From a virus, in the IMG/VR virus record IMGVR_UViG_3300050821_023931, positions 11,619 to 75,618 of that record: a stretch of DNA of 64,000 nt. The stretch is one strand, 5' to 3'. Positions 8,431-63,010 of this stretch are shown here, piece by piece (positions within the stretch are counted from its first letter, which is position 1; each line of letters starts with the position of its first letter). Both the position numbers and the translations under genes were made by a program. The notes below the pieces were generated by a model. That model ran no database searches, was not told the origin of the DNA, and saw only the letters and a program-made list of their open reading frames with translations.

Positions 8431-10302
8431 TTATTTTACTTCTTCATAATCTACAGTTTCAGCATCTTGAGGTGTCTCTGAAGCTTCTGTTTGAGCTTCT
8501 GTTGTAGCAGAATTTGATTGTATTTCACCATAAAACTTACTAAGCTCCTGATTAAGACTTGTAGTTAAAGAATCCATTTTCGTAAAGTCTTTAGAATTCT
8601 TAGCTTCTATGAGATCTTTAATTAAAGTTTCAACTGAAGACTTAGTTGCTGGTGTCACTTTGTCACCATATTCTTTGAATTGTTTTTCGGCCTGAAATAT
8701 TGTTGATTCAACAGCATTAAGTTTCTCAACTTCCTCTTTGAATTTCTTATCAGCTTCAGCATTTGCTTCCGCTTCACTTTTCATTCGTTCTATTTCTTCT
8801 TTTGTTAGAGATGTTTTATTATCAATTCTGATAGATTGTTGTTTACCAGTATTTTTTTCTCTTGCTGTAACAGTAAGTATACTGTTTGCATCTACACTGA
8901 ATTTAACTTCTATCTGAGGTGTTCCACGCATTCCTGGGGGAATTCCATCAAGAGTAAATTTACCAAGAGATTTATTATCAGAAGCTCTTGTTCTTTCACC
9001 TTGTAAAACATGTATTTCAACAGATGTTTGATTGTCTGAAGCTGTAGAATAAACTTCTGTTTTTTCTGTTGGTATAGTTGTATTACCATCAATCATCTTT
9101 GTAAAAACGCTTCCAAAAGTTTCTATACCAAGTGAAATTGGTAAAACGTCTAAAAGTAAAATATCAGTTGTTTCTCCAGTCAAAACGCCACCTTGCAGAG
9201 CTGCACCCTCAGAGACACAAAGATCCAAATTCAATGTTTTATTAAGTTTTTTACCAAAGAATTCTTCTAATTTTGTTTGTAAAGAAGGTATGCGACAGCT
9301 CCCACCAACAAGTAAGATATCGTCAATTGATGTTATATCGATATTTTCTTTTTTTAGACATTTATCACATAAATCAATAATTCTATTATTGAAAAATTCT
9401 ATCAACTGTTCGAATTTTGATCTACTAATTGTTTTATTTAAATGTAAAGGTACACCATTTAAAACTGTTATATACGGAAGAGAAATATCAGAAGAAGGGC
9501 TAGAGCTTAATTCGCATTTTAGTTTTTCGGATGCTTCTATAAGTCTTTGTAAAGACATTGTGTCTTTTCTTAGATCAAATCCAGTTTCTGTGAGAAACTC
9601 AGTGGCAACATAATTTATAATTGCCTCATCCACAAGAAATCCACCTAAATCTAAATCGCCATGGGTTGATACTATCTCAAAAATATTATCTGAAATATTT
9701 ACAACTGAAATATCTACAGTGGAACCTCCAGCATCAACAACTATTACAGTTTTTTCAGTATCATCTGGATATTTCACATTTAAACAACCAGCTGTAGGCT
9801 CACTAATAATCCTTTCAACTTGAAGATTGCTTATAATACCAGCATTTTTAGTTGCTTCTCTTTCTTCATTATTAAAGAAAGCTGGTACTGTAATAACAGC
9901 TCTTGTTATTTCTTCACCCAAATAATCTTCAGCAGTTTTCTTCAATTTTTGAAGTATCATGGCTGATATTTCTTCTGGTGAATAAACTCGGTCACCAATT
10001 TGAACAGCAGCCCTACCGTTTGAATTTACAATTTTGTAGGGGCGTTTTAAATCTTTCACTTGATCATACGTTTTACCCATTAATCTCTTAATGTTATAGA
10101 TGGTATTCTCTGGATTCATGTTGGCTTGTCTTTTTGCTGAATCGCCAACCTTTATACCATCTTTCGTGAAAGCCACCCAACTTGGGGTAGTGTATAAACC
10201 TTCAGAATTAGGTATAGTTTTTACTTCCCCACCTTCGATAATTGATACAGCAGAATTTGAGCTTCCCAAATCTATTCCGATTATTTTGTTTGATTTTGAC
10301 AT
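8431..10302 (-). CDS. dnaK: Hsp70/DnaK chaperone (divergent ATPase domain)
   Basis: GIDLGSSNS, IKRLMG, TVPAFF, EPTA, DAGGST, DILLLDV linker, STASDNQTSVEIHVLQGER, C-terminal VDYEEVK. Confidence 0.97.
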   Translation of the reverse strand: MSKSNKIIGIDLGSSNSAVSIIEGGEVKTIPNSEGLYTTPSWVAFTKDGIKVGDSAKRQANMNPENTIYNIKRLMGKTYDQVKDLKRPYKIVNSNGRAAVQIGDRVYSPEEISAMILQKLKKTAEDYLGEEITRAVITVPAFFNNEEREATKNAGIISNLQVERIISEPTAGCLNVKYPDDTEKTVIVVDAGGSTVDISVVNISDNIFEIVSTHGDLDLGGFLVDEAIINYVATEFLTETGFDLRKDTMSLQRLIEASEKLKCELSSSPSSDISLPYITVLNGVPLHLNKTISRSKFEQLIEFFNNRIIDLCDKCLKKENIDITSIDDILLVGGSCRIPSLQTKLEEFFGKKLNKTLNLDLCVSEGAALQGGVLTGETTDILLLDVLPISLGIETFGSVFTKMIDGNTTIPTEKTEVYSTASDNQTSVEIHVLQGERTRASDNKSLGKFTLDGIPPGMRGTPQIEVKFSVDANSILTVTAREKNTGKQQSIRIDNKTSLTKEEIERMKSEAEANAEADKKFKEEVEKLNAVESTIFQAEKQFKEYGDKVTPATKSSVETLIKDLIEAKNSKDFTKMDSLTTSLNQELSKFYGEIQSNSATTEAQTEASETPQDAETVDYEEVK

Positions 10303-10873: not shown

Positions 10874-11821
10874 ATGATTCACAATTTTGGTGATGATATT
10901 ATTTTATATGAAGGTGATATGTTAGAATTATCACCTAAATATATCAAAGATTCCAGTGTTGAACTTTTGTTGGTAGACCCTCCGTACAATATTGGAAAAG
11001 ATGGTAAAGATGGTTGGGATACTTTTGTTTCTGAGGCAGCATATTATGATTTTTTATCAAAAGTATTTAAAGAAGCTGATCGTATATTAAAACCTTCTGG
11101 TACAGTTTATATTTTTCATCAGAAATTTAAAGACTTGTGTTGGATACATGATCATCTGACAAAAGTGTACAAGTTCAATTTTAAGCAGTTGATCACTTGG
11201 AATAAAAAATTTAATGGGTGTCGGCTGGAAGGATATCTTGAGGGATATACATCACAAGTAAATAAGAATAGAAATTATCCAACAATGTCGGAGAATATAT
11301 TATTCTTTTCTAAACAGCCCGATCATTTTGAAAACCCATTTGTGAGAGTGATGAAAGAAAATATGAAAAAGTTAAACTTGACTCAAACTCATTTAAGTAA
11401 ACTTATAAAAACTAGGAATGGAAAAAAAAGTGGTTGGTCATCCACAAAACTAAACGGTAGACAACTTCCTACACGAGATCAATGGAAAAAACTTTGTGAA
11501 TATTTTCGGATAGAAGATAAGTACGACTTATTGATAAATATGTATGAAGAAGAAAGATATTATTTTTCTTGTCAGGGTGAGTTACACTCTGTATGGAATT
11601 ATTCTATAGATTTTGATAGCTGGCATGTCTCAGCAAAACCGATTACTTTATATCAAAGTATTTTTCGTCATTCATATAGGCCTGGAAGTCTAATTGTTGA
11701 TTTATTCTGTGGTTCGGGTAGTGTTATCGCTGCCAGTCTAAAAGAAGCTTGTAAATTAATCACTTTTGAAAATAAATCTGAATATGTTAAAAATATAATA
11801 TCTGATTTATTGGAAGATTAA
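10874..11821 (+). CDS. DNA amino-methyltransferase (N6-A/N4-C, beta class) with inserted HTH-like region
   Basis: DPPY near N-terminus, H..AKP and DLFCGSGS near C-terminus; central MKKLNLTQTHLSKL...QLPTRDQWKKL segment resembles XRE-HTH. Confidence 0.9.
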   Translation: MIHNFGDDIILYEGDMLELSPKYIKDSSVELLLVDPPYNIGKDGKDGWDTFVSEAAYYDFLSKVFKEADRILKPSGTVYIFHQKFKDLCWIHDHLTKVYKFNFKQLITWNKKFNGCRLEGYLEGYTSQVNKNRNYPTMSENILFFSKQPDHFENPFVRVMKENMKKLNLTQTHLSKLIKTRNGKKSGWSSTKLNGRQLPTRDQWKKLCEYFRIEDKYDLLINMYEEERYYFSCQGELHSVWNYSIDFDSWHVSAKPITLYQSIFRHSYRPGSLIVDLFCGSGSVIAASLKEACKLITFENKSEYVKNIISDLLED

Positions 11822-14620: not shown

Positions 14621-17600
14621 ATGGCTATTAACATTGCTGATTATGGTGATCCTGGTATAATTATAAACGAAAAGGATTTTTCTCTATATACGATTTCAGG
14701 TTCTGATAATAACGTAACTACGCTTATTATTGGTGTTAGTCGTCAAGGACCTATGAATCTACCTATTCAAGTTAATTCTCCAGAAAATTTTGAGGAGATC
14801 TTCGGATCGTTAGACCGGACTTTGGAGAGAAAAGGATCATTCTTTCATCAAACCGTTGAAAACTTACTAGCTAGTGGTTCCACTGTTACTTGTATCAATC
14901 TTTTATTGACAGACCCCCAATTTGATTTATATAATTGGATGTCTTTCTCAACGACAGCTTTTGTTCAAAATTCACCTGTTCGTAGTAATGCTGTAGATAG
15001 TTTTTATGATAAGAGAGGATTCTGGAAAAGATCTCCGGATCAATTATTAACGGTAGCAAATAATAGTTCGGTTGATGCAAACCCGAGACTTTTTAACCTA
15101 GTCAATATGGGTGGTAAGGCTGTATCAGTTCTTATCAGACAATCGGCAAACAAAAATTTTGATATTACTTTAGAAGATTGGTATGGTGGTCGTCATTTGG
15201 TACCTAATTATCTTCATCCACTAGATTTTGTTTCAGATTACCTGGTAGAAATGTTTGTTTTTGAGGGAAGATGGGATAATTATAGAGTATTATCAACAGA
15301 TCCTAAATTAGGTAAATACTTTAATTCTAATGGTCTTAAAAAAGAACTAATTCAAAATTTTGTAAATGAAAAAAGTTCTAATTTTATACAAAGATATGAA
15401 GGAACTTTTATTCCATATTTTGCTGATATTAAAGGTAATGATATGTGGCTTCCTAGTCTTGTTAATGATGATATTGATACATTAGGTATTTTAGTAGTCC
15501 AGGATATAGATAAGTTTGAAATGAGTAATCCATCTGATTATATGGTTGATATTCTTGGGGCCAGTCTTGAAGAAAATAGAACTGATGTAATAGATTTCCT
15601 TTCATATAAAGAAAATATTGTTGATTTACTTGTTTTAGATGAGATGATGGTCGATCAGATTGGTAATGATTTTGGTTTTGATTTAACAGGTTATTTAGGT
15701 TCTACTTCTGGAACTTATTATGCAGGAAGAAGGATTGGTTATGCTGAGGGGTATGTACAAGGTTGTCGTCTAAAACCTCTTATATTAAGTTCTACTGGAA
15801 CAGTAACTGTTAATCCGTTCGATTGTGATACTGAAGCTTATGTTATTTTTAAAGGTCAACAATTTACTTTAAGTGATGATATTAGTTATGTATTTGCCTT
15901 GCATGAAAACATATCAACGAACATGCAAGCTTTGATGTTGTTTTATGTAGACATTACTGGTATTCATATGACTATTGGTGCTCAATCTTCTATAAATGGA
16001 TCTATGAAATTTCCTTATATGGATCCTGACAACACGTTAGTCCTTGGATATTATAGATTTTATCAGATTGGTTTACAGTATTACATAGAACTTCCTGTAG
16101 GAGTAACAATAGATATTAATGGTTTTATATTACCGTATAGATTAGGTAGTGAGACAGCACCAAAGATACATTTTCAAGATGTTCCGTATGCTTGGCAGAT
16201 TAATTTATATTTTGAAAATGTAAAAACAGTTACTGGATACGATTATAATGTTAACCGAATATATTATTTATGGTCCATATTATCACAAAAGTTAGTTCAG
16301 AAAGTATCCATGGTTCTTGATGTAAATAGTAATAAGAAAGTTATTAATTTTATTGAACCTGGTGATGATAATACAGGAAGATGGCTTAGAATAGGTGTGC
16401 TCGATACAACAGCAAATATTAGAGATACTATTTCTGTGAATTTAGAATTAGCTATTTATTTTGCTGACGTTGATTTTATATTCCAAGATGAAAATATATT
16501 AAGAACTACAGATAATCCATTTGTGATTGGTCAAGATGGTATCGTGGGTAGAGACAGTATGCTTTATCAAGCTTATAAGCAGAGTTTTGTTAATACTGGT
16601 GATCACTTCTTTTTAGAATTGGCTACTGAAATTAATACACAGTTTATTTTTGATAATGGTAATAATTTGCTTGTGTTACAAACGGGACCTATTGAAAATT
16701 ATCTCAATCTTAAAATATTTGTATACGGTTCACAATATAACGATGGTGAGTTTAATGTTATTGGAGAGACTTATTATAATAATTATTATGCTTTGGTTTT
16801 AGATAAACCTATTGTTGCTGAATCTGTGGCGGAATTAGGAATTTTTGATGCTTCAGTTTTACAGTATTTAAATTTGTATATGGTAAATGATATACTTTAT
16901 GCTGACTATAAAGTTGATCCTAACCAAACTGAAGTTTTTCAAAATATAGTTAAACCAAACAATCCTAATAGTTTTAGAAAAACTGTTGAGATACAGCAAA
17001 TACTTAATAACAACATAATACTTGTAGATGCTACTAAATATGTTAATTTATTAAATGTTGGTGATTTCTTACTAGCTGATACAACTAGTGATCCATTTTA
17101 CAGCGAACAAGGCTTTAGAAAAAGGGATTGGGTTAGAATTATTGATATTGTAGCTTATGCACAAAATACTAGTTGGTTGTTAATTGAAGCTGATGCTGCT
17201 ATTAATATAACTAATCTTAATGGTAGTCTTCAAACTACAGGTTTTGTAAAAGTTGAAAATTATGTGAATACTTATAATTTACATACATTCGATGGTTTTA
17301 AAGTAAGACCAGAATCTATGCCGGATGGTACAGAAACAAGACTTAACGATATTCTTAATTTAGTTGCTCCAGGAACTAAATTGTTCGATCAAATTACTGA
17401 TCCAGAGATATTGGAATGGCGATATTTGGTAGATTCGTTTGGTCTTGGACTTACAACAAATTGTAAACAACAATTGGCTGACATTTGTGGGGCAAAAACA
17501 TTAGGTTTAGGCTTCCTGAATTTACCTTCTGCAAAAAGTTTTAAAAAATCAACAAGTCCAACATTTACAGATCCTACCTATGGTAATCTTTCTATTCAGC

Positions 17601-18325
17601 AAATAGTTAATGGTGGTTCAAGGGTTACTTCGGGAAGTTTCCAATTTGGTTTAGCTGATGGTGTAGGTATAAGTAATGTTGCTTATTTCTTCCCTTATGT
17701 TATTATCAATGATGATGGAAGGCCATCTTTTGTTCCTCCGGCCAGCTTTGCTGCTAGTTTATTCTTATCAAAATATACTACTAGAGATAGTCAAATTACA
17801 CCATGGACGATTATGGCTGGTGCTGATCGAGGATTTATAGCTGGGATAGCTGGTACAGAAATGGAGTTTACACAAAACGATTTGAATCTATTAAATCTAT
17901 TAAGAGTAAATCCTATACAAACACATCTTACTAAATTCTATGCTATAGCCTCTGATAACACAGCTGAATCTAAGAATAGTGTTTTAGGTAATATACATGT
18001 TCGTGAGGCTTTAATAAGTTTAGAAAGTTCATTAAGATCAATGCTTAAATCTTTCCAATGGAAATTCAGTATACCTTCAGTACGAGCTGAAATTCTTAGA
18101 CAAGCTAATAATATATGTCAGAATTATTTTACACAAAATGCTATAGCTAATTATAAAAATATATGTGATGAAACGAATAATACACCAGATCTTATTGATG
18201 CACAGATAGGTGTTTTGGATACTTTTGTTGAACCAATAGCTGGAATGGGAACGATTGTTTTAAATATTGGTGTTGATAAAACTGGCGGAATTCAAGTAAA
18301 TGAGACAACTTCACAAATTTTTTAA
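14621..18325 (+). CDS. Contractile tail sheath protein (T4 gp18-like, enlarged)
   Basis: N-terminal PGIIINEKDFS, GVSRQGPMNLP, FEEIFG; C-terminal PW..AG..RG, RVNPI, NIHVRE, ICDETNNTPDLID, FVEP. Confidence 0.92.
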   Translation: MAINIADYGDPGIIINEKDFSLYTISGSDNNVTTLIIGVSRQGPMNLPIQVNSPENFEEIFGSLDRTLERKGSFFHQTVENLLASGSTVTCINLLLTDPQFDLYNWMSFSTTAFVQNSPVRSNAVDSFYDKRGFWKRSPDQLLTVANNSSVDANPRLFNLVNMGGKAVSVLIRQSANKNFDITLEDWYGGRHLVPNYLHPLDFVSDYLVEMFVFEGRWDNYRVLSTDPKLGKYFNSNGLKKELIQNFVNEKSSNFIQRYEGTFIPYFADIKGNDMWLPSLVNDDIDTLGILVVQDIDKFEMSNPSDYMVDILGASLEENRTDVIDFLSYKENIVDLLVLDEMMVDQIGNDFGFDLTGYLGSTSGTYYAGRRIGYAEGYVQGCRLKPLILSSTGTVTVNPFDCDTEAYVIFKGQQFTLSDDISYVFALHENISTNMQALMLFYVDITGIHMTIGAQSSINGSMKFPYMDPDNTLVLGYYRFYQIGLQYYIELPVGVTIDINGFILPYRLGSETAPKIHFQDVPYAWQINLYFENVKTVTGYDYNVNRIYYLWSILSQKLVQKVSMVLDVNSNKKVINFIEPGDDNTGRWLRIGVLDTTANIRDTISVNLELAIYFADVDFIFQDENILRTTDNPFVIGQDGIVGRDSMLYQAYKQSFVNTGDHFFLELATEINTQFIFDNGNNLLVLQTGPIENYLNLKIFVYGSQYNDGEFNVIGETYYNNYYALVLDKPIVAESVAELGIFDASVLQYLNLYMVNDILYADYKVDPNQTEVFQNIVKPNNPNSFRKTVEIQQILNNNIILVDATKYVNLLNVGDFLLADTTSDPFYSEQGFRKRDWVRIIDIVAYAQNTSWLLIEADAAINITNLNGSLQTTGFVKVENYVNTYNLHTFDGFKVRPESMPDGTETRLNDILNLVAPGTKLFDQITDPEILEWRYLVDSFGLGLTTNCKQQLADICGAKTLGLGFLNLPSAKSFKKSTSPTFTDPTYGNLSIQQIVNGGSRVTSGSFQFGLADGVGISNVAYFFPYVIINDDGRPSFVPPASFAASLFLSKYTTRDSQITPWTIMAGADRGFIAGIAGTEMEFTQNDLNLLNLLRVNPIQTHLTKFYAIASDNTAESKNSVLGNIHVREALISLESSLRSMLKSFQWKFSIPSVRAEILRQANNICQNYFTQNAIANYKNICDETNNTPDLIDAQIGVLDTFVEPIAGMGTIVLNIGVDKTGGIQVNETTSQIF

Positions 18326-29232: not shown

Positions 29233-29691
29233 TTAACCAATTACTTTAATATTTTCTGGTGGAACCGTTTCATCAAGAGTGATGTCACCACCTACTAAAT
29301 CAGGATGAGCATCCATATAAATATCAAATAACATATCCCAGTCGGTCTCACCAGTTTCTTCATCCTCCATTAAATCAGAATTCCAATAAGTATTTTCCTC
29401 TGGGTATAGATCATAATAACTATCAGGTGTAATTGTTATCTCTAATAGTACTGTGTCACCACCAACTCTCTGTATACCAGGATCACCTAAAACTGTATGA
29501 ATTACAGGTATTATTCTACCATAATTAGGAGAAAGACCTTCTTTCATTATATTTTCTAAATATTTAGGTTCCGTTCTGTGGTATAATTTAACACCATTAG
29601 GAAACATAGCTGTTAATTTATTTACAAAAATATCTTGAAAATACGATTCGCTATACTCGAAATTTTCAAATGTTTTAATGTAAATACCCAT
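29233..29691 (-). CDS. ADP-ribosyltransferase (Tpt1/KptA-like) fold protein with capsid-targeting-like N-terminus
   Basis: LYHRT....LENIMKEGLSP, VLLEI, terminal VPPENIKVI; N-terminus YIKTFENFE. Confidence 0.6.
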   Translation of the reverse strand: MGIYIKTFENFEYSESYFQDIFVNKLTAMFPNGVKLYHRTEPKYLENIMKEGLSPNYGRIIPVIHTVLGDPGIQRVGGDTVLLEITITPDSYYDLYPEENTYWNSDLMEDEETGETDWDMLFDIYMDAHPDLVGGDITLDETVPPENIKVIG

Positions 29692-53655: not shown

Positions 53656-54645
53656 ATGGGAGGAAACGCACTAACAGTTCCGTCAAGAAGAATTACAAAA
53701 GATGAATATCTTGTACTTGAAAGTAAAGTATTCGAAAAATTAAGACAAAGATTTTCTGATGTTAGAAATATATTGTATTACCGAGATAAAAAAGATTTTG
53801 GTGATATGGATATTCTTATTGCTAAAGATGGTACAAACAATGAAGATACTAGGAATTATTTGTTGTCAGAATTTGGCTCTAAAGAAGTTGTTTGTAACAC
53901 TGATGTTATATCATTTGAACTTGATGGGTTTCAAATAGATTTGATCTTTACTGAGCCTGATGATATGGAAGCAGCAGCCTTCTACTACAGCCAATGCGAT
54001 GCCAATAATATCATTGGCCGAATTGCTAATCAGTTTGGTCTTAAATTCGGTCACACAGGACTCGTTTATGTGAACAGAGGCCAAAGTGGAAATATTATGA
54101 ATAAAGTAGTATTAACTAAGGATCCGGTCAGAATATATGAATTTCTTGGTTATGACTATGAAACATATGCTAAAGGTTTTGATACTCTTGAACAAATATT
54201 TGATTTTATTATAGCAGGAAAATATTTCTCAAAAGAAATTTTCGAATACGAAAATTTGAATCATCAGAACCGTACCAGGAATAGAAAAAGGAAAACGTAT
54301 CAACAATTTCTCGAATATATTTCAACTCTGAACATATATTATGAATTCAAAGAGGAATACGAATATCTTAATCATATTGATTCATTCTTCCCTGAGGTAG
54401 GCCTTAAAAGCAAACTGTTAGAATTTGTAAAAGAAGAATTACAACGAATGAAAATGAAAGAGAAATTTTCAGGAAAGATTGTAATAAGTATTATTCCGGA
54501 ATTGAAAGATAATAGCTTAGGTTTGTTTATTGAAAAATATAAATCAAGTAAAGAGTCTTTTGATGATTATGTTCAAAAAACAAAAGCTACGGATATTAAA
54601 AAGGATATCTTAGCTTTCTATACAAACTTAAATAGTAAGAATTAA
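53656..54645 (+). CDS. Pol-beta-superfamily nucleotidyltransferase
   Basis: KKDFGDMDILI and FQIDLI (three catalytic Asp), GLKFGHTGL. Confidence 0.75.
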   Translation: MGGNALTVPSRRITKDEYLVLESKVFEKLRQRFSDVRNILYYRDKKDFGDMDILIAKDGTNNEDTRNYLLSEFGSKEVVCNTDVISFELDGFQIDLIFTEPDDMEAAAFYYSQCDANNIIGRIANQFGLKFGHTGLVYVNRGQSGNIMNKVVLTKDPVRIYEFLGYDYETYAKGFDTLEQIFDFIIAGKYFSKEIFEYENLNHQNRTRNRKRKTYQQFLEYISTLNIYYEFKEEYEYLNHIDSFFPEVGLKSKLLEFVKEELQRMKMKEKFSGKIVISIIPELKDNSLGLFIEKYKSSKESFDDYVQKTKATDIKKDILAFYTNLNSKN

Positions 54646-55011: not shown

Positions 55012-56595
55012 TTATTTGTTTAATAATTCTATTAGATAATCATAGTGCCACTTACATATATTATATAAACTATCCTCTGGTTTAAAGCCGATATATTCGA
55101 ATGCTTTTAAGTATGAATGATCCTTTAGTAACTCATTCTTATTTTCATAGAAATCCATATTCAACTTCCATATATCAATAGAGAACCCCATAGGATCCAG
55201 TATAGAAGCTCTTATATAAGGACAAACGTATGGATAGATATAAGGCACTCTGGCTTTGATACCGTTTGGTAATTCAATAGTGAGCCCATTATTTGCTTCA
55301 CCTATTATGAAATCACGACAATCTAATATTTCAGATTCGTCATTAAATGAGATATTTAGTGTTATGCTACATTTGATATCAATTTCATTTTGTTTGAGAA
55401 GGTCTGTCACAAATAATACAGTTTTACCTGTATGAACATCATCATCGAATAAAATATACTTATTTCTATCTAAAGAATCAATTTGTTCTTGTAATGGGAT
55501 AGAACCAATTCTATTGGTGTATCCAATTTTATTAATACCGAACGTATCATAGTACCTAGATATCTGTAAATTATTTTCACAAGTTATCAATGAATCCAAA
55601 CTTATAACAGGACATAAATCAGTCTTGTTAATCTTCTCTAAAATACCAGATATCTTATCTTTCTGTTCTGAAACACTGTTTTCTTTTATAGAAATAAATT
55701 GCTCATTTAGTTTACTTATTATATCAGTCTGTAAGGGAGAATATTTATCATCTGAATCTTCTACACGAAGTTTCAATTCTTTTTTACTTAATTCTATATT
55801 CAGATTTTCTCGTACTTTTGTTGATGAATTATCATTGTTACCATCACAAAAAATTATATCATAATTATCATCAAACAACGATTTGTGCTCTTCATAAGCT
55901 TTTTCATATCCTGGTCTTTTTACTACAACGCAATGACCTTTGAAGGTAAAAGTCTTTGAGAATCGAGCATTATCAGAACCACAGACAAAGAATATAGGAA
56001 TCTCTACACCCAAATGTTGTTTTAAATACAATTGGAGCCTTTGAATAACATCCGTGAAGTTGACAGCGACTTTACAAAATAAAGCTTCCCATGGGTCCAC
56101 AAACAACCAATCAATATCTTTTACAGCATCATTAATTAGTTTTATTCTATGGTAGGCTGGAATTGCTTTATCTTTAATCTTAGAGTAAATATATTCGTCG
56201 TGTCCAGGTGATAGATATCCACCAATAACGGTAAAATCATTTTCTTCAACAGCTTTCTTAGCTTGTATCATTGTTTCTATATGACCATTATGTACTGGAC
56301 ACATAGCTCCAGTTGAAAGAAGTATACAAGGATTCTTAGAATTTTTAAGATTTTCTTTTATATGATGTATTGGTGTACATAGAACATTTAGACTCTTAGT
56401 AATATCATAATTAGATTTATCTGAGTCTAAAAAGAATCCGGCCTCTAATATTCTACTTAAACAATATTTATCAGCTTCATATGTATTTCTATAATGAAGC
56501 CTTTTGTAATTGTTATAGATATCATTATAATATGGATCTCTTTCAATTTTTGCTTGAGCATTCCAATATGTTCTTTCAATCTGCCAATCATCCAT
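55012..56595 (-). CDS. NMN/NaMN adenylyltransferase (NMNAT/NadD-like) fused to a type I phosphoribosyltransferase-like domain
   Basis: TGAMCPVHNGH (HxGH), GGYLSPGHDEY, HRIKL, VDPWEA, FVCGSD, SSTKVR; C-terminal ILFDDDVHTGKT PRPP-binding motif. Confidence 0.8.
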   Translation of the reverse strand: MDDWQIERTYWNAQAKIERDPYYNDIYNNYKRLHYRNTYEADKYCLSRILEAGFFLDSDKSNYDITKSLNVLCTPIHHIKENLKNSKNPCILLSTGAMCPVHNGHIETMIQAKKAVEENDFTVIGGYLSPGHDEYIYSKIKDKAIPAYHRIKLINDAVKDIDWLFVDPWEALFCKVAVNFTDVIQRLQLYLKQHLGVEIPIFFVCGSDNARFSKTFTFKGHCVVVKRPGYEKAYEEHKSLFDDNYDIIFCDGNNDNSSTKVRENLNIELSKKELKLRVEDSDDKYSPLQTDIISKLNEQFISIKENSVSEQKDKISGILEKINKTDLCPVISLDSLITCENNLQISRYYDTFGINKIGYTNRIGSIPLQEQIDSLDRNKYILFDDDVHTGKTVLFVTDLLKQNEIDIKCSITLNISFNDESEILDCRDFIIGEANNGLTIELPNGIKARVPYIYPYVCPYIRASILDPMGFSIDIWKLNMDFYENKNELLKDHSYLKAFEYIGFKPEDSLYNICKWHYDYLIELLNK

Positions 56596-57355
56596 CAATA
56601 ATAGCTTTAAAAGTTATGTCACCTCTTATTATAATTCTGGGATCGGTACCAATGTATCTCTCCACATCATGACAAATTCTATGTTCAAATACTAAGATAT
56701 TTCCTTTTACCGGAGATACTGAACAGATAACATCTTCATTCAGACTTTCATGAATCCAATCATCATGCTTACGATCATAAACTGGTATATCACCTTTCCC
56801 ATCATGTATGAATCTAGTTGCTCCAGAATCATTAGTTGTAAGGTATACTACAAAAGACATAAGAGTTCTGTATTTACTATCCTCATAAATATATCCAGCA
56901 TCATAATGAGCGAAATGTTGACCACCAGATTCATACTTCATAAATCTTAGAAGTGGTGATATAGAATATGGTTCCCAATTTTTATAAGCTTTAATTTGCC
57001 ACCAATCTGTTGGTGTAAAATCATCACAAATCTTATTTTCAAAAGAATCTTTTATCTTATTCCAGAATTGTTCAGCCAGCTCAGGTACCCACATTGTGGT
57101 TCTTTTTGAGCCAACTTCATAATTAGGTATATCTGTTCTACCATGTACACTTACCGGTGCACAACTAGGTGATTGTTGCATCAAATCAATTAGTAAGTCA
57201 CATTCATTATCAGTGAATACATTTTCTAATACAAAAGCATTATCAAATAAAACTTCTTTCTTGATATTAGTTGGTTCATTTAAAATGAAAGAAGGGAATG
57301 GTGGTTCCCAACCTCCAGGCAATTTAGAAATATCTGGTTTCTTAATAGTAAGCAT
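56588..57355 (-). CDS. 2OG-Fe(II) dioxygenase (prolyl-4-hydroxylase-like)
   Basis: LENVFTDNEC, RFMKY..G.HF.HYD, FVVYL, GAT.F, PVKGNILVFEH..HDV, R. Confidence 0.88.
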   Translation of the reverse strand: MLTIKKPDISKLPGGWEPPFPSFILNEPTNIKKEVLFDNAFVLENVFTDNECDLLIDLMQQSPSCAPVSVHGRTDIPNYEVGSKRTTMWVPELAEQFWNKIKDSFENKICDDFTPTDWWQIKAYKNWEPYSISPLLRFMKYESGGQHFAHYDAGYIYEDSKYRTLMSFVVYLTTNDSGATRFIHDGKGDIPVYDRKHDDWIHESLNEDVICSVSPVKGNILVFEHRICHDVERYIGTDPRIIIRGDITFKAIIDG

Positions 57356-57549
57356 TAGAATATTTTATCAAAAGCCCCACAATAATAAAGTAAAACTAAA
57401 AGTATAATACAAACACCAATGCTCCAATACTGTTGTTCACATTCAGTATTTTTAGTATCGAAACCACTTAATGCTGCTATCAATAAATTTAGCAGAATAA
57501 ATAAGCCAGAAAGTACGAGTAGTAAAACTTGAAATATCATAATCACCAT
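57355..57549 (-). CDS. Small two-TM membrane protein
   Basis: Two hydrophobic helices; overlaps both neighbours. Confidence 0.6.
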   Translation of the reverse strand: MVIMIFQVLLLVLSGLFILLNLLIAALSGFDTKNTECEQQYWSIGVCIILLVLLYYCGAFDKIF

Positions 57550-58523
57550 CCTCCCCGAATATGTCTGTTTAAAATATCAATGAAATGTGAAGGTTTACCT
57601 ACCTGGTATTTGTGACGATTCGTATCGTGTAAATCTTCAATATTTTTAGCATACTTCTCAAAGATTTCTTTCTCATCATCTTTGAGAAGCTGTGATATTT
57701 TTTGTATATCCATATAAGGGGTTTCCATAGTATATTCAAAAGATCTATTATCTGAATCAAATTCTTTCAATAACAAATACATTTCTAAAAACCAATATGG
57801 TGCACCAATCATACTTTCATCATTTCTGCCATCCCAAACATCACCAGCTGGAGTAGCATTTATAATTTCTTCCGGAATACCTAAAACTTCTGCAACAGCA
57901 TATACTTCAGATTTATGAATGTCAGCTATTGGTTGTAGATCTACCATAGCATCTGAGGCTTTACCAAAAAATCCTATGTAAGAACCTTCATCACGATTAA
58001 TTGTTCCTACAACAATTGATTTTTTACCTTCTGCTTGTAAGATAGCAGCATGATAATATAAACATGGTGTTCTAACAATTGATGCCAGTTGTCCTTGAGC
58101 CCAGGTACTTTTAGTATCTAAACTCCGATCTACATAAGAATTGAATACTGAAGATAAATCAATTGTTGTAAACCGAACATTCGCAGTACAAAATTTTGTT
58201 AATAAACCAGATCTTTTGGTACCTATAATTTGATTAGATGTACCAACACCATAAATTGGCATGTTAATACCTAATACTTTCTTTAAAGGGCTACCTTCAA
58301 CTTTTGAAGCTTTAGATAATAAAGCGAAAACTATGGCTGAATCAATACCACCAGATATTCCGATAACAGCTGAATCAAGTTTAGCCCATATAAAGAAATC
58401 ATTTATGGCTTCTATTTTCTTTTCAATATAAGAATTAACATCAAAACCTCTCAGTCTCTTCGTTCTCTTCTCAATATCTTTGAGAGTTAATTTTTTTTCT
58501 GGATGTTGTAATACCGGTGTCAT
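57543..58523 (-). CDS. nadE: NH3-dependent NAD+ synthetase
   Basis: VIGISGGIDS, GINMP, RTPCLY, VVGTINRDE.YIGFFGKASD, QPIADIHKSEVY. Confidence 0.88.
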   Translation of the reverse strand: MTPVLQHPEKKLTLKDIEKRTKRLRGFDVNSYIEKKIEAINDFFIWAKLDSAVIGISGGIDSAIVFALLSKASKVEGSPLKKVLGINMPIYGVGTSNQIIGTKRSGLLTKFCTANVRFTTIDLSSVFNSYVDRSLDTKSTWAQGQLASIVRTPCLYYHAAILQAEGKKSIVVGTINRDEGSYIGFFGKASDAMVDLQPIADIHKSEVYAVAEVLGIPEEIINATPAGDVWDGRNDESMIGAPYWFLEMYLLLKEFDSDNRSFEYTMETPYMDIQKISQLLKDDEKEIFEKYAKNIEDLHDTNRHKYQVGKPSHFIDILNRHIRGGW

Positions 58524-59197: not shown

Positions 59198-60352
59198 TTA
59201 TAAAATTATATGTGGGACAAAGCTACTTCCGTTATTTGTGATGAGACTTACTGATTCTCTTATACCCATACCACAAGCTTCACCTCCGATAACCCAGGAG
59301 CCTATTACAGGGTATTTAATTGTACCATTTTCATCTTCGTGACCAACTAATTTTTTCAACTCTTGGTAAACATAACCTTCGTATCCATAGTCACCATCTT
59401 CTGAATGAACAGTCTGACCATTTTCAACAATTTCTATGTTGGCACCTTCTCTTGAAAAAATTGGTTTCTTTACATAATCTACTAACAAATGTTTTTTGTT
59501 TTCGAAATAAGTAGGTAGAAGATAAGGTGAATCTGGATAAAGCTCATACATGATAGCCATGATTCCTTTATTACTCATTACTAATTTCCAAATAGGCTCA
59601 ATAAAAGATGTTTCACTTTCTAGTAAATTATCACCAAATCCTTCGTTGATCATCCACTCCCAAGGATACAACTTAAACAATGTTTCTATTGTATTTTCAT
59701 TGGTGTCACGAAACTCTTGGTCTTCACTATTCCAGCCAATATCTTGTACATGTAAAAAATCTGTTTCTATACCGGCTTGTTCAGCTGTATCTCTTAAATA
59801 GGTAACAGTTGTATAGTCTTCGATATGATTTTTAACCGAAGCAAAGTAGAATGGTTGTGTATAATCTTCATCAGCGATATATTTCCAGGAATCAATTAAA
59901 GATTCATGTATACTATTAAACTGATCCATATCAGGAAACCTTTCTTCAAGCCATTCCCACTGTATAACAGCAGCTTCAAATAAAGATGTTGGTGTATCAC
60001 CATTGAATTCAAATAGTTTAATGTCTATACCATCAAACCAAAAATCGAACCGGCCATAAAGAGATAAATCATCTCTCTCCCAAGAATCGTATATTAAGTT
60101 ATGAAATTTCTCAGGAATTCCTAATTTACTTAACAAACGTTCATCAAGAATATGTTGAACAGTATCAATATACATTTGATAAACTTCATTTGTTGCTCTT
60201 TCAAGATTATTAATCTGAGACATATTGAATGCGTAATATGCTGATTCATCCCAATAAGCTTGTTTCTTATCATCGTGATGATGGAAATGAAGTCCTTGTT
60301 TTTCAACAACGCTTTCCCAGTTAAGTCTGGGTCTGATTTGAATTCTCTTCAT
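59198..60352 (-). CDS. Glutathionylspermidine synthase-like ATP-grasp ligase (YgiC/YjfC family)
   Basis: YWDESAYY, LYGRFDF, EFNGDTPTSLFE, QFNSIHE, FKLYPWEW, SNKG, KPIFSREGANI, IGSW, GIRE, FVPH. Confidence 0.92.
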   Translation of the reverse strand: MKRIQIRPRLNWESVVEKQGLHFHHHDDKKQAYWDESAYYAFNMSQINNLERATNEVYQMYIDTVQHILDERLLSKLGIPEKFHNLIYDSWERDDLSLYGRFDFWFDGIDIKLFEFNGDTPTSLFEAAVIQWEWLEERFPDMDQFNSIHESLIDSWKYIADEDYTQPFYFASVKNHIEDYTTVTYLRDTAEQAGIETDFLHVQDIGWNSEDQEFRDTNENTIETLFKLYPWEWMINEGFGDNLLESETSFIEPIWKLVMSNKGIMAIMYELYPDSPYLLPTYFENKKHLLVDYVKKPIFSREGANIEIVENGQTVHSEDGDYGYEGYVYQELKKLVGHEDENGTIKYPVIGSWVIGGEACGMGIRESVSLITNNGSSFVPHIIL

Positions 60353-61033: not shown

Positions 61034-63010
61034 TTATATTTGTATACCAAGTTCTTCCAAAATCTGATCATAAGTCTTTATTGGAATACCCAATTTAGTA
61101 GCGGTCTTCATTTTAGAAGTTGTTGCTTTAAGATCATCACAAATAAGAAGTTTTGTATCCTTCTTCAGGGCTGTATGCATATAACCCTTAGGTTCTATTA
61201 ATTTAGCGAACTCACCTCGTGATTTGAATCCACTTGGTGCTTCACCAGTCATTTCAAATGTTATCGTATCTGTACTCATAGCAACTTTTTGTTTAGGTTT
61301 AATAACTTCAACGCCTACTTTCTCTAATGTTTCCAACATGTATACTATTTTCTCTTGGATCTCAGAATTCTCTTTTACAGCCTCAGCCATCAAAGCCTTT
61401 TCATAACCAGCAAAAGAATATTCTTGTCCTGTCAAATATTTTGCGAACTCTGCTGATATAGTTTTACCTATACCATCAATTTGAACAGCATTAATAACTC
61501 TCCATAATTCAACTTTTTTCAATTTCTGTAAAGACTCAAATATTTTATCAAGTGCCCGGCCAGCTTTAAATAGACCAGAAGTAATAAGAGATTCTTTAGT
61601 CATTGTACCATCAAAATAACTATGAATAGTTTTAATACCAGCACCATGTAAGTTTTCTATGGTTGCTGGGCCTATACCCTTAACATCAAGAATTTTTAAT
61701 CCTTTATCAATTTTCCTTACAGCAAAGTCTGGTAAATCTTGATAATTTTCAACTCTGATATGAGGTCCATCCCAATAAGTTTTGTGTCCTTTATATTCAG
61801 TTGGGAATATGAATTCTGTTTCAGAGGCTTCGATAATCTCTATAATCTGTGGAATAATATCACCAGCCTTACGTATTTTAACTGTAGCACCTATGTTAAG
61901 TTTCTTATCTCTAACATATCTGTAATTGTGTAAAGAGGCTTTAGAAACCATTGTACCATCTAATTCTACAGGCATCAATATAGCTTTAGGTGATAATTCA
62001 CCTTTGCTACCCATTGTATTAGTAATGTTAGATATTTTTGTAACAGCATCTTTAGCTGGAAATTTAATAGCTTTGGCCCATCTTGGATGATGACTTGTAA
62101 CACCCATTGCCTCTCTGTATTGTTCAGGAACCTTAGCAACAATACCATCTAATTGAAATATTGAAGTTCTTCTATATTCAACAAATTCTTCATAAATATC
62201 AACAATACTGCTAATATCTGTAATTGTTTTTCTGAAAATAGGAAATTTATTATTGAATCCCCAGGTTTGAAGTGTTTCGAGTGTATTGTTGTCTTTGAGA
62301 GGGATATTAGAAATGTTTTCCGCTATTATCACATAAGCAACAAAAGCAAAATCTTTAATAATTTCTTTCTCTATAATATCCCTGTTCAATATACCAGCAA
62401 TAAAATTTCTTGGATTGGCCGGGCAGTTAGGATCATCAATATCAAAATATTCAGATTCAAAAATTGTAAGAGGTATTACAACTTCACCACGAATCTCTAC
62501 AAGCTCATCTTTATATGGTATTGTTGCTGGGACAATGAGTCTTAATTTATCAGTAACATCTTTACCTTTTCCATGTTTACCCCTGGTAATAGCTTGTTTC
62601 AATTTACCTCGTTCATAAACAAGATTGATTGCGTTACCATCAAATTTAGGTGTGAATTCTATTTCAATACCAAAATAATCTTTAAGCCAGTTAAGGAAAA
62701 AATCAATTAGTATAGTCGCAGCATCTTTTACTTGAACTTTATCCAAAGATAACATTGCTGTAGGATGTGGATGAATTAAATCTTTTGTATTTCTTGGACC
62801 ATTTACTTCATCAACAATTCTGGATCCTTCAGCTCTTAATATTTCTTCAACTATATCGAAGATGATGTCCGGCATTATAGGAGCTTTTGCTTCATCATAA
62901 TAAGCATCACAGGCTTCTTCATATAATTCTTCTAATTGATTCAAAGAGATAGACGTAAATTGTTCTCTTGATTTTTCAACGGGCATTCCGAAAAAATTAA
63001 ATTCTGTCAT
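61034..63010 (-). CDS. ligA: NAD+-dependent DNA ligase
   Basis: AYYD...IMPD..FD, MLSLDK, PKFDG, AITRG, EIRGE, NPRN, DGIVAK, AIKF, ASLHN, KAGDIIPQ, HhH GIG motifs, C-terminal BRCT. Confidence 0.95.
   Translation of the reverse strand: MTEFNFFGMPVEKSREQFTSISLNQLEELYEEACDAYYDEAKAPIMPDIIFDIVEEILRAEGSRIVDEVNGPRNTKDLIHPHPTAMLSLDKVQVKDAATILIDFFLNWLKDYFGIEIEFTPKFDGNAINLVYERGKLKQAITRGKHGKGKDVTDKLRLIVPATIPYKDELVEIRGEVVIPLTIFESEYFDIDDPNCPANPRNFIAGILNRDIIEKEIIKDFAFVAYVIIAENISNIPLKDNNTLETLQTWGFNNKFPIFRKTITDISSIVDIYEEFVEYRRTSIFQLDGIVAKVPEQYREAMGVTSHHPRWAKAIKFPAKDAVTKISNITNTMGSKGELSPKAILMPVELDGTMVSKASLHNYRYVRDKKLNIGATVKIRKAGDIIPQIIEIIEASETEFIFPTEYKGHKTYWDGPHIRVENYQDLPDFAVRKIDKGLKILDVKGIGPATIENLHGAGIKTIHSYFDGTMTKESLITSGLFKAGRALDKIFESLQKLKKVELWRVINAVQIDGIGKTISAEFAKYLTGQEYSFAGYEKALMAEAVKENSEIQEKIVYMLETLEKVGVEVIKPKQKVAMSTDTITFEMTGEAPSGFKSRGEFAKLIEPKGYMHTALKKDTKLLICDDLKATTSKMKTATKLGIPIKTYDQILEELGIQI

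Follow-up and report, generated by a model that had tools for sequence, protein, structure and literature searches.

A candidate NAD+-synthesis module of huge phages and bacteria that couples NadE to an oxygenase and to a fusion of NMNAT with a phosphoribosyltransferase-like domain

Gene organization of the locus

A run of minus-strand genes in a 64,000-nucleotide (nt) window of viral DNA (the whole stretch analyzed; positions 11,619 to 75,618 of IMG/VR record IMGVR_UViG_3300050821_023931) encodes a NadE-family enzyme (hereafter the module NadE), a small protein with two transmembrane (2-TM) helices, a 2-oxoglutarate (2OG)/Fe(II)-dependent oxygenase and a fusion protein, in which a eukaryotic-type adenylyltransferase domain (NMNAT) for nicotinamide or nicotinate mononucleotide (NMN or NaMN) precedes a domain resembling the type I phosphoribosyltransferases (PRTs) (Table 1). 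An annotation made from the letters of the window alone (the original prediction) had described four overlapping open reading frames (ORFs) and proposed that they constitute a new phage pathway for nicotinamide adenine dinucleotide (NAD+). All four ORFs are present, and the overlaps read from the sequence are ATGGTGA (7 nt) for nadE and the 2-TM ORF, TAATG (1 nt) for the 2-TM ORF and the oxygenase gene, and ATGGATGA (8 nt) for the oxygenase and fusion genes. Translation of the fusion probably begins at the ATG at 56595; the protein would then have 527 amino acids (aa), the length of a matching database protein (P0001). A Shine-Dalgarno-like GGAGG stands just before the 2-TM ORF, where its spacing is best for the second ATG (MIFQ...); other starts in the run, such as that of nadE at 58523, are not preceded by such a sequence.

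The 2-TM ORF, which the original prediction had counted as part of the gene unit, has no family match in library scans and no tblastn relative among 31 related loci. As it is not conserved in any of these, we regard it as a local insert and do not include it in the module, which accordingly comprises the nadE, oxygenase and fusion genes.

Table 1. Features of the module and other genes of the window, in window coordinates
Feature	Coordinates	Strand	Remarks
nadE (module NadE)	57543-58523	-	326 aa
PP-loop SGGIDS of NadE	58338-58355	-	aa 57-62
GGAGG, Shine-Dalgarno-like	57540-57560	-	just before 2-TM ORF
2-TM ORF	57355-57549	-	64 aa, two hydrophobic helices, between nadE and oxygenase gene
2OG/Fe(II) oxygenase	56588-57355	-	255 aa
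Fe ligands H150-x-D152	56900-56908	-	
Fe ligand H229	56669-56671	-	
2OG-binding R240	56636-56638	-	
Fusion protein	55012-56598	-	528 aa from TTG; stop codon 55012-55014
Conserved helical N-terminal region of fusion	56389-56598	-	aa 1-70
NMN/NaMN adenylyltransferase domain, eukaryotic type	55783-56388	-	aa 71-272 of 528-aa ORF; HxGH at 56281-56292
Type-I-PRTase-like C-terminal domain	55015-55782	-	aa 273-528; PRPP-loop LFDDDVHTGKT at 55420-55446
NAD-dependent DNA ligase, LigA type	61034-63010	-	PF01653 E 2.5e-38, PF03120 E 5e-23, phrog_3869 E 7e-129
Glutathionylspermidine-synthase homologue, full-length	59198-60352	-	PF03738 E 6e-146, phrog_6215
329-aa protein	53656-54645	+	phrog_24943 'DNA polymerase' E 2e-43; also PF14792 (Pol-beta palm), weak, E 0.002, under the cut-off
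'ART-like' gene of the original prediction	29233-29691	-	no Pfam match at E <= 0.01
Tail sheath	14621-18325		phrog_34521 E 3e-82
HSP70/DnaK	8431-10302	-	PF00012 E 2e-198
ORF of >2775 aa	3-8327		adjoins HSP70/DnaK; runs off window start

Sequence and structure features of the module proteins

The module NadE is recovered by the NadE family models PF02540 (111.8 bits against a cut-off of 21, E 3.8e-32) and TIGR00552 (105.4 bits against 63.65), which places it in the NadE family, and the SGGIDS motif on which the original prediction had relied is real and conserved, with S57, G58, G59, D61 and S62 invariant in the alignment of its subfamily (A5). It falls below the full-length equivalogs (PRK13980, PRK00768 and similar), the best being PRK13980 with 125.5 bits against 255. 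By its alignment it is a separate subfamily, distinguished by the C-terminal motif IE..H..N.HKY.VG.P...D...R..GGW. Among solved structures it comes closest to short NadEs that depend on NH3 (2e18, 3p52, 3fiu and 1xng), and scans with family models detected no glutaminase domain in the protein.

The fusion protein, modeled with a predicted local distance difference test score (pLDDT) of 92, shows in its central domain both the NMNAT fold and the signature and NMN-binding motifs of this family: across 25 homologues H103, G105 and H106 of the HxGH motif and S259 of the SSTxxR motif are invariant and R263 of the latter is kept in at least 90%, while GGYLSP..DEY and VDPWEA align with the plant, fungal and human NMNATs (9rpk, 9iw1, 1gzu). 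Against the bacterial NadD equivalog TIGR00482 it scores only 57.8 bits, the cut-off being 112.45. The C-terminal domain has a phosphoribosyl pyrophosphate (PRPP) loop, YILFDDDVHTGKT, in which D385, D387, G391 and T393 are invariant and D386 is present in at least 90% of the same homologues, followed by a strongly conserved 'hood' with the elements EILDxRDF, GLV, PYxYPYV, R463 and W477; on these features we classify it as a divergent type-I-PRTase-like domain. Thus the HxGH, GGYLSP, VDPWEA and LFDDDVHTGKT motifs noticed earlier were all borne out. Library scans found no curated family that covers the whole protein.

The family of the fusion has at least 196 full-length homologues. A tblastn search of the GenBank phage collection gave no match, and neither did a single-sequence scan of viral contigs; a profile scan of these contigs did find relatives. 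PADLOC assigned no defense or anti-defense family to the fusion or the module NadE, and only a generic 2OG model to the oxygenase. In a complete 391-kb IMG/VR phage with terminal repeats (L005, 7968-9515), an in-frame TAA at codon 260 divides the fusion exactly at the linker between its domains, leaving the NMNAT and PRT-like parts as two ORFs of 259 and 233 aa. This looks like a natural split form, and the position of the stop codon fits the two activities being separable. An in-frame TAA in a Cellvibrio metagenome-assembled genome (L019) lies within the NMNAT domain and reflects a pseudogene or an assembly error. About 89% of a 1273-aa protein of Arthroderma uncinatum (P0261) is covered by a match to the fusion profile (E 2e-86), with the NMNAT domain at aa 313-416; the fusion family may extend to fungi.

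The oxygenase combines the HxD...H triad, a basic 2OG anchor and a double-stranded beta-helix fold, and is thus a 2OG/Fe(II) enzyme resembling the prolyl 4-hydroxylases (P4Hs). The HxD...H...R signature given in the original prediction held up: H150, D152, H229 and R240 are invariant in 16 aligned orthologues (A2), and PF13640 is matched with 28.5 bits against a cut-off of 27. For its model (pLDDT 92) the best folds are bacterial, algal and viral P4Hs, with E about 1e-7 (Foldseek E 7e-8 against 5hv0, 3gze and 5c5t); the similarity to the P4Hs is limited to about 15% identity and a TM score of about 0.5. At least 300 orthologues exist, all of them unnamed or generically named, and the gene context points to a small-molecule substrate. 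Among its structural neighbors in the ESM Atlas are 2OG oxygenases of bacteria that carry fused beta-propellers of the WD40 and TEP1 types (TM score 0.71) and oxygenases of eukaryotes (mollusc, rotifer; TM score 0.73-0.79).

A conserved and recurrently fused gene module

The original prediction had left it to a gene-neighborhood survey whether the three enzymes travel together, and they do. The survey covered 22 loci from species-representative genomes and nine huge IMG/VR contigs, and then 80 further metagenome loci, with partner counts restricted to the 65 loci whose sequence extends 2.2 kb or more upstream of the fusion. The order nadE>oxygenase>fusion on one strand, with abutting or overlapping genes, was seen in 20 of the 22 genome loci and in most of the phage loci; both partners were present in 49/65 loci and the tight canonical order in 41/65. 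Each of the three phage records with a completeness rating of 97% or more has all three genes. In several lineages the genes are themselves fused: NadE and the oxygenase form a single ORF in four loci (L025, L029, L030, L031), and all parts lie in one 1193-aa frame in another (L032). At least 21 database proteins of 1131-1427 aa also match the fusion profile, and in 17 of these precomputed Pfam assignments include both NadE and NMNAT. On rescanning five such proteins we found an N-terminal NadE followed by NMNAT in four, three of which have the oxygenase in between; the fifth, a fungal protein, showed the NMNAT domain only. The nadE, oxygenase and fusion genes define a conserved, operonic and mobile module, which is found in huge phages, bacteria and perhaps fungi.

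Replacement of the oxygenase by a RaSEA-like radical-SAM protein

Three loci (L003, L049 and L118) encode the module NadE and the fusion and lack the oxygenase, and have instead a gene for a radical S-adenosylmethionine (SAM) protein resembling RaSEA. In two of them (L003, L049) this CX4CX2C protein, whose two copies are 52% identical, is encoded between the NadE and fusion genes, and in L003 no oxygenase was found anywhere in the 232-kb phage record. These two proteins match the RaSEA model TIGR01210 with E values of 5e-49 and 8e-61, and in the ESM Atlas the RaSEA-like proteins align with RaSEA clusters at feature scores of 0.98-0.99 and TM scores of 0.87-0.89. A scan of viral contigs started from the RaSEA-like protein yielded one further phage, a 95.7-kb contig with a tail sheath gene, in which the order (L118:149-7071) is Nudix, Nampt (NAMPT_N + NAPRTase), NadE, NMNAT::PRT, a 202-aa ORF and the RaSEA-like gene (PF04055, 44 bits). 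The oxygenase and the RaSEA-like gene never occurred together in about 115 loci, and the NadE next to either type of oxidase belongs to the same subfamily with the common C-terminal motif. As two unrelated C-H-activating enzymes thus interchange as partners of NadE, the oxidase is likely to perform a real chemical step and not a regulatory one. The record studied here has no RaSEA, its window carrying the 2OG oxygenase form. Small ORFs that flank the RaSEA-like genes are not conserved across the three loci. Elsewhere, a radical-SAM/SPASM and ATP-grasp protein is encoded 1.4 kb upstream of a nadE-fusion pair without oxygenase (L077), a weak association that is possibly unrelated.

The reaction of RaSEA offers a chemical precedent. 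ArcS, which makes no use of NH4+, asparagine or glutamine, transfers lysine to preQ0, and RaSEA converts the lysine adduct to archaeosine by removing the lysine skeleton while the nitrogen is retained by the base; ArcS and RaSEA associate in an obligate complex (PMC11298593). By analogy, this complex parallels the pairing and fusion of NadE with its oxidase.

NAD-related context, distribution and mobility

In bacteria the module lies among genes for NAD metabolism. The regulator NrtR is encoded directly upstream in Leptospira and Polyangiaceae, and other neighbors include NadV/Nampt, PnuC together with a NadR-like gene, a TonB receptor, NadM-Nudix and an ADP-ribosylglycohydrolase. The Cellvibrio clusters comprise TonB receptor, PnuC, NadR-like, NadV, oxy2, two unknown ORFs, NadE, oxygenase, fusion and Smr, where oxy2 is a second, shorter 2OG oxygenase paralogue (PF13640) in the nadV-nadE interval (L017:4452-5105, L019:4862-5419). 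Canonical NadC and NadE matches were found in all five carrier genomes checked and NadD above cut-off in four of the five, which makes the module an accessory one in bacteria; the host NadE matches lie in open frames of 485-805 aa, a length that fits the glutaminase-fused type, the glutaminase domain itself not having been scanned for. Two Leptospira genomes have no gene of the PncB or NadV families, and the PRT-like domain of the module is therefore the only candidate salvage PRTase there.

The module occurs only sporadically, with 4 carriers among the 401 Spirochaetota sampled. In a phylogeny built from 78 fusion proteins, the seven sequences from phages are interspersed with bacterial ones, and the Leptospira fusion groups with phage copies (Shimodaira-Hasegawa-like approximate likelihood ratio support 93), from which we conclude that the module is mobile and moves between huge phages and bacteria. 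It is, in short, an accessory NAD-salvage module of bacteria that huge phages also carry. Hence, of the proposed new phage NAD+ pathway, the functional unit and its tie to NAD stand, whereas its restriction to phages does not, in view of the bacterial loci with NrtR, NadV and PnuC.

Proposed route and competing explanations

The best explanation of the data as a whole is a self-contained, mobile NAD+-synthesis module of three genes with four catalytic parts, to which we assign a probability of about 0.55; that its product is NAD+ or a very close analogue we consider rather probable. The simplest reading is a Preiss-Handler-like order of phosphoribosyl transfer, adenylylation and amidation. The PRT-like domain would couple PRPP with a free pyridine base, of which nicotinate is the most likely, a base-attaching role to which we give about even odds, and the NMNAT domain, with its evident fold and motifs, would adenylylate the resulting mononucleotide. 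The module NadE, a clear member of its family, is predicted to activate the nicotinate carboxyl by adenylation. We propose that it ligates an amine or amino-acid donor, and not free ammonia or glutamine nitrogen, to the nicotinate carboxyl of nicotinate adenine dinucleotide (NaAD) or NaMN, that the P4H-like oxygenase hydroxylates the carbon next to the nitrogen, and that the carbinolamide then collapses to yield the primary amide of NAD+. Where a lineage lacks the oxygenase, the RaSEA-like radical-SAM enzyme would strip off the carbon skeleton of the donor instead. The outcome would be NAD+ kept available for the LigA of the phage without a need for the PncB, NadD and NadE of the host.

The donor-dealkylation step is suggested by the oxidase swap and by the known ArcS-RaSEA reaction, and as an argument from analogy we advance it tentatively. 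The same holds for the wider suggestion of an ammonia- and glutamine-free NAD+ amidation, in which a P4H-like oxygenase would possibly be the partner in aerobes and a RaSEA-like lyase elsewhere. Hydroxylation of a carbon adjoining nitrogen is the chemistry of peptidylglycine amidation and of AlkB/JmjC dealkylation, and P4H-like enzymes act on amide-bound amino acids. The proposal would account for the NadE-oxidase fusions, for the missing glutaminase domain, for a NadE of its own despite that of the host and for the recruitment of a P4H-like enzyme. The original prediction had considered a repair or modifying role; with its fusions to NadE and the RaSEA-like stand-in at three loci, the oxygenase is better explained as an obligatory partner of the amidation.

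Several points weigh against this proposal. The analogy moves a reaction on a tRNA amidine adduct to the amide of a dinucleotide; the module NadE is nearest to NH3-dependent NadEs, the Francisella enzyme included, and its nitrogen source may just be ammonia. With 167 and 206 bits, the RaSEA-like proteins stay just below the trusted cut-off of 212; the 150 best RaSEA-like representatives include no fusion to NadE, and only three loci of the RaSEA type were seen. Some phage records have only part of the gene set, most of these being incomplete, and a protective role against NAD-depleting host defenses, which the module possibly has, is pure inference.

If the NadE did use ammonia, the oxidase could act on the pyridine base or nucleotide itself within a plain Preiss-Handler-like route, either by converting an environmental precursor to nicotinate (for example through N-demethylation of trigonelline, or through oxidation or aromatization of a reduced or alkylated pyridine) or by making a hydroxylated NAD analogue. 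This we consider unlikely, even though the invariant arginines of the oxygenase (R85, R137, R163, R181, R240 and R244) and its TDWWQ motif (A2) would fit an anionic nucleotide or carboxylate, the nucleotide-acting 2OG enzyme PolD (9blq) is among its fold matches, and the TonB receptor and PnuC adjoining the Cellvibrio cluster hint at import of a pyridine. An NMNAT and NadE of its own, besides the NadD and NadE of the host, would likewise fit a non-standard intermediate. However, such a scheme gives no reason for the fusion of the oxidase to NadE, or its order beside NadE, and not the PRT domain, nor for a stand-in that is of the RaSEA C-N lyase type in particular; whether dehydrogenases or LigA could work with a modified NAD is doubtful, and no candidate for the precursor is evident in a phage-infected cell. 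The lack of a glutaminase domain could also mean that the oxidase is the ammonia generator of the module NadE, deaminating a free amino acid or amine and passing NH3 to the synthetase. Its fusion to NadE in several lineages would then correspond to that of the glutaminase in canonical NadE, the type which the length of the host NadE frames fits. We nevertheless hold this to be very improbable, as it would be energetically costly and neither 2OG oxygenases nor RaSEA-type enzymes are known to us as dedicated ammonia donors. Moreover, RaSEA works on an adduct and not on free lysine (PMC11298593).

The preference of the fold searches for protein prolyl hydroxylases, including the Bacillus anthracis P4H that modifies EF-Tu (5hv0, 5v7y), and the frequency of unassigned 2OG oxygenases in phages (ESM Atlas clusters) would be in keeping with a regulatory hydroxylase that senses O2 or 2OG and modifies NadE, the fusion or a host protein; the module might also make a dinucleotide unrelated to NAD. 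Neither idea carries more than a slight probability in our view. One would not expect a radical-SAM lyase to take the place of a sensor, the oxygenase is as well conserved as the enzymes (35-52% identity) with all catalytic residues kept, and the NrtR, NadV, PnuC and NadR context, together with the NMN-binding motifs common to solved NMNATs, points to NAD. We therefore favor NAD+ synthesis with the oxidase as a partner in the amidation.

The phage and its other genes

The source record is a 75.6-kb IMG/VR entry with a CheckV completeness of 14%. A giant eukaryotic virus had been suspected from the HSP70, the LigA, the very long ORFs, the eukaryote-like NMNAT and the low completeness; this was rejected in favor of a huge tailed phage because the window encodes a tail sheath, a single-stranded DNA-binding protein and an SbcD-like nuclease, and on its gene content we take it to be a fragment of such a phage. 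The original prediction had placed an NAD-dependent ligase in one leftward run with the NAD genes, and it does lie there. This LigA is a phage-encoded consumer of NAD+ and provides context for the module without being part of it; a LigA gene is also found 2-6 kb from the fusion gene in two other phage loci (L005, L008). The glutathionylspermidine-synthase homologue belongs to the same run, and the 329-aa protein is encoded convergently with the NAD operon. An ADP-ribosyltransferase (ART) label given earlier to a further gene could not be confirmed.

Relationship to known systems

Clusters of pncB, nadD and nadE that specify the Preiss-Handler route, and frequent NAD-dependent ligases, have been reported from jumbo phages at the level of annotation (PMC11662467), and NadE in a phage NAD route is thus not new in itself. 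The module resembles these clusters in that huge phages carry it alongside an NAD-dependent ligase, and resembles the Preiss-Handler pathway in its predicted sequence of steps, from base and PRPP to mononucleotide, by adenylylation to deamido-NAD and by amidation through a NadE-family enzyme to NAD+. It differs in having no PncB, whose place is taken by a type-I-PRTase-like domain fused to the adenylyltransferase, in the eukaryotic NMNAT type of the latter as opposed to NadD, and in a distinct NadE subfamily whose partner, separate or fused, is a 2OG oxygenase or, in its stead, a RaSEA-like enzyme, the classical route having no oxidase. The eukaryotic NMNATs (human NMNAT1/3, the Arabidopsis thaliana NaMNAT 9rpk and the Chaetomium thermophilum enzyme 9iw1) have in common with the module enzyme the HxGH, GGY(L/M)SP..D.Y, VDPWE and SSTxxR motifs; unlike them, it is fused to a PRT-like domain of about 255 aa and has a conserved helical N-terminal region.

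With ArcS-RaSEA the module would share the use of a coupled enzyme pair that brings in nitrogen as part of an amino acid, whose carbon skeleton is removed once it has been attached. In both systems the partners are paired, and a RaSEA-family protein does stand beside the module NadE and the fusion in the three oxygenase-free loci. The window, in contrast, has a 2OG oxygenase, whose partner is a PP-loop NadE and not the TGT-like ArcS, and the group acted on would be the carboxylate or amide of a dinucleotide and not the nitrile or amidine of a tRNA.

We found no paper on the module in the literature on NAD+ reconstitution pathways (NARPs), on NadE with oxygenases, on NrtR or on jumbo phages, and the undescribed nrtX-nrtY genes of the NrtR paper could not be linked to it; the specific module is not known from this literature, while the general idea of NAD synthesis by jumbo phages is already known. 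Most likely it makes NAD+ from a free pyridine base by way of two unrecognized enzymes, an unusual base-attaching domain and the oxidase partnered with amidation. To our knowledge, NAD biosynthesis is regarded as fully mapped, with NH3 or glutamine (via a fused glutaminase) as the only nitrogen sources of the amidation, and all known pyridine phosphoribosyltransferases are of type II. If our interpretation is correct, the module would contain the first type-I-fold pyridine phosphoribosyltransferase and would add to a universal pathway an oxidase in O2-dependent and radical-SAM versions, bringing a mechanism in the style of peptidylglycine amidation or archaeosine formation into the synthesis of a universal cofactor. 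With the RaSEA lead, an oxygenase that had lacked an explanation becomes the subject of a concrete hypothesis. For huge phages the module would mean a host-independent NAD supply for their ligase.

Among phage-borne NAD-making sets, NARP1 consists of Adps (PRPP-synthetase-like) and Namat (Nampt-like), and NARP2 of Nampt and Nmnat/Nudix. NARP3 consists of PnuC and a NadR-like protein (PMC13464706). In the 75.6-kb record, which covers about 14% of the genome, we saw none of Adps, Namat, Nampt, PnuC and NadR: it has no gene of the NAPRTase/Nampt family, the module proteins match neither NARP1 family, and PF04095 is absent from it, though present elsewhere in related phages (G001, G003, G004 and L118). 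In L118 a Nampt and a Nudix gene adjoin the module, so that a NARP2-like pair and the module occur in one phage cluster. The module resembles the NARPs as a phage-borne set for making NAD, and NARP2 and NARP3 likewise end in an NMN adenylyltransferase step. None of NARP1-3 includes a NadE, an oxygenase or other oxidase, or a type-I-PRT fusion, all of which the module has; the original prediction was right about NadE and the oxygenase for NARP1 and NARP2, and the NARP preprint mentions neither NadE nor an oxygenase. The module would be a candidate for a fourth route by which phages might escape NAD-depleting defenses.

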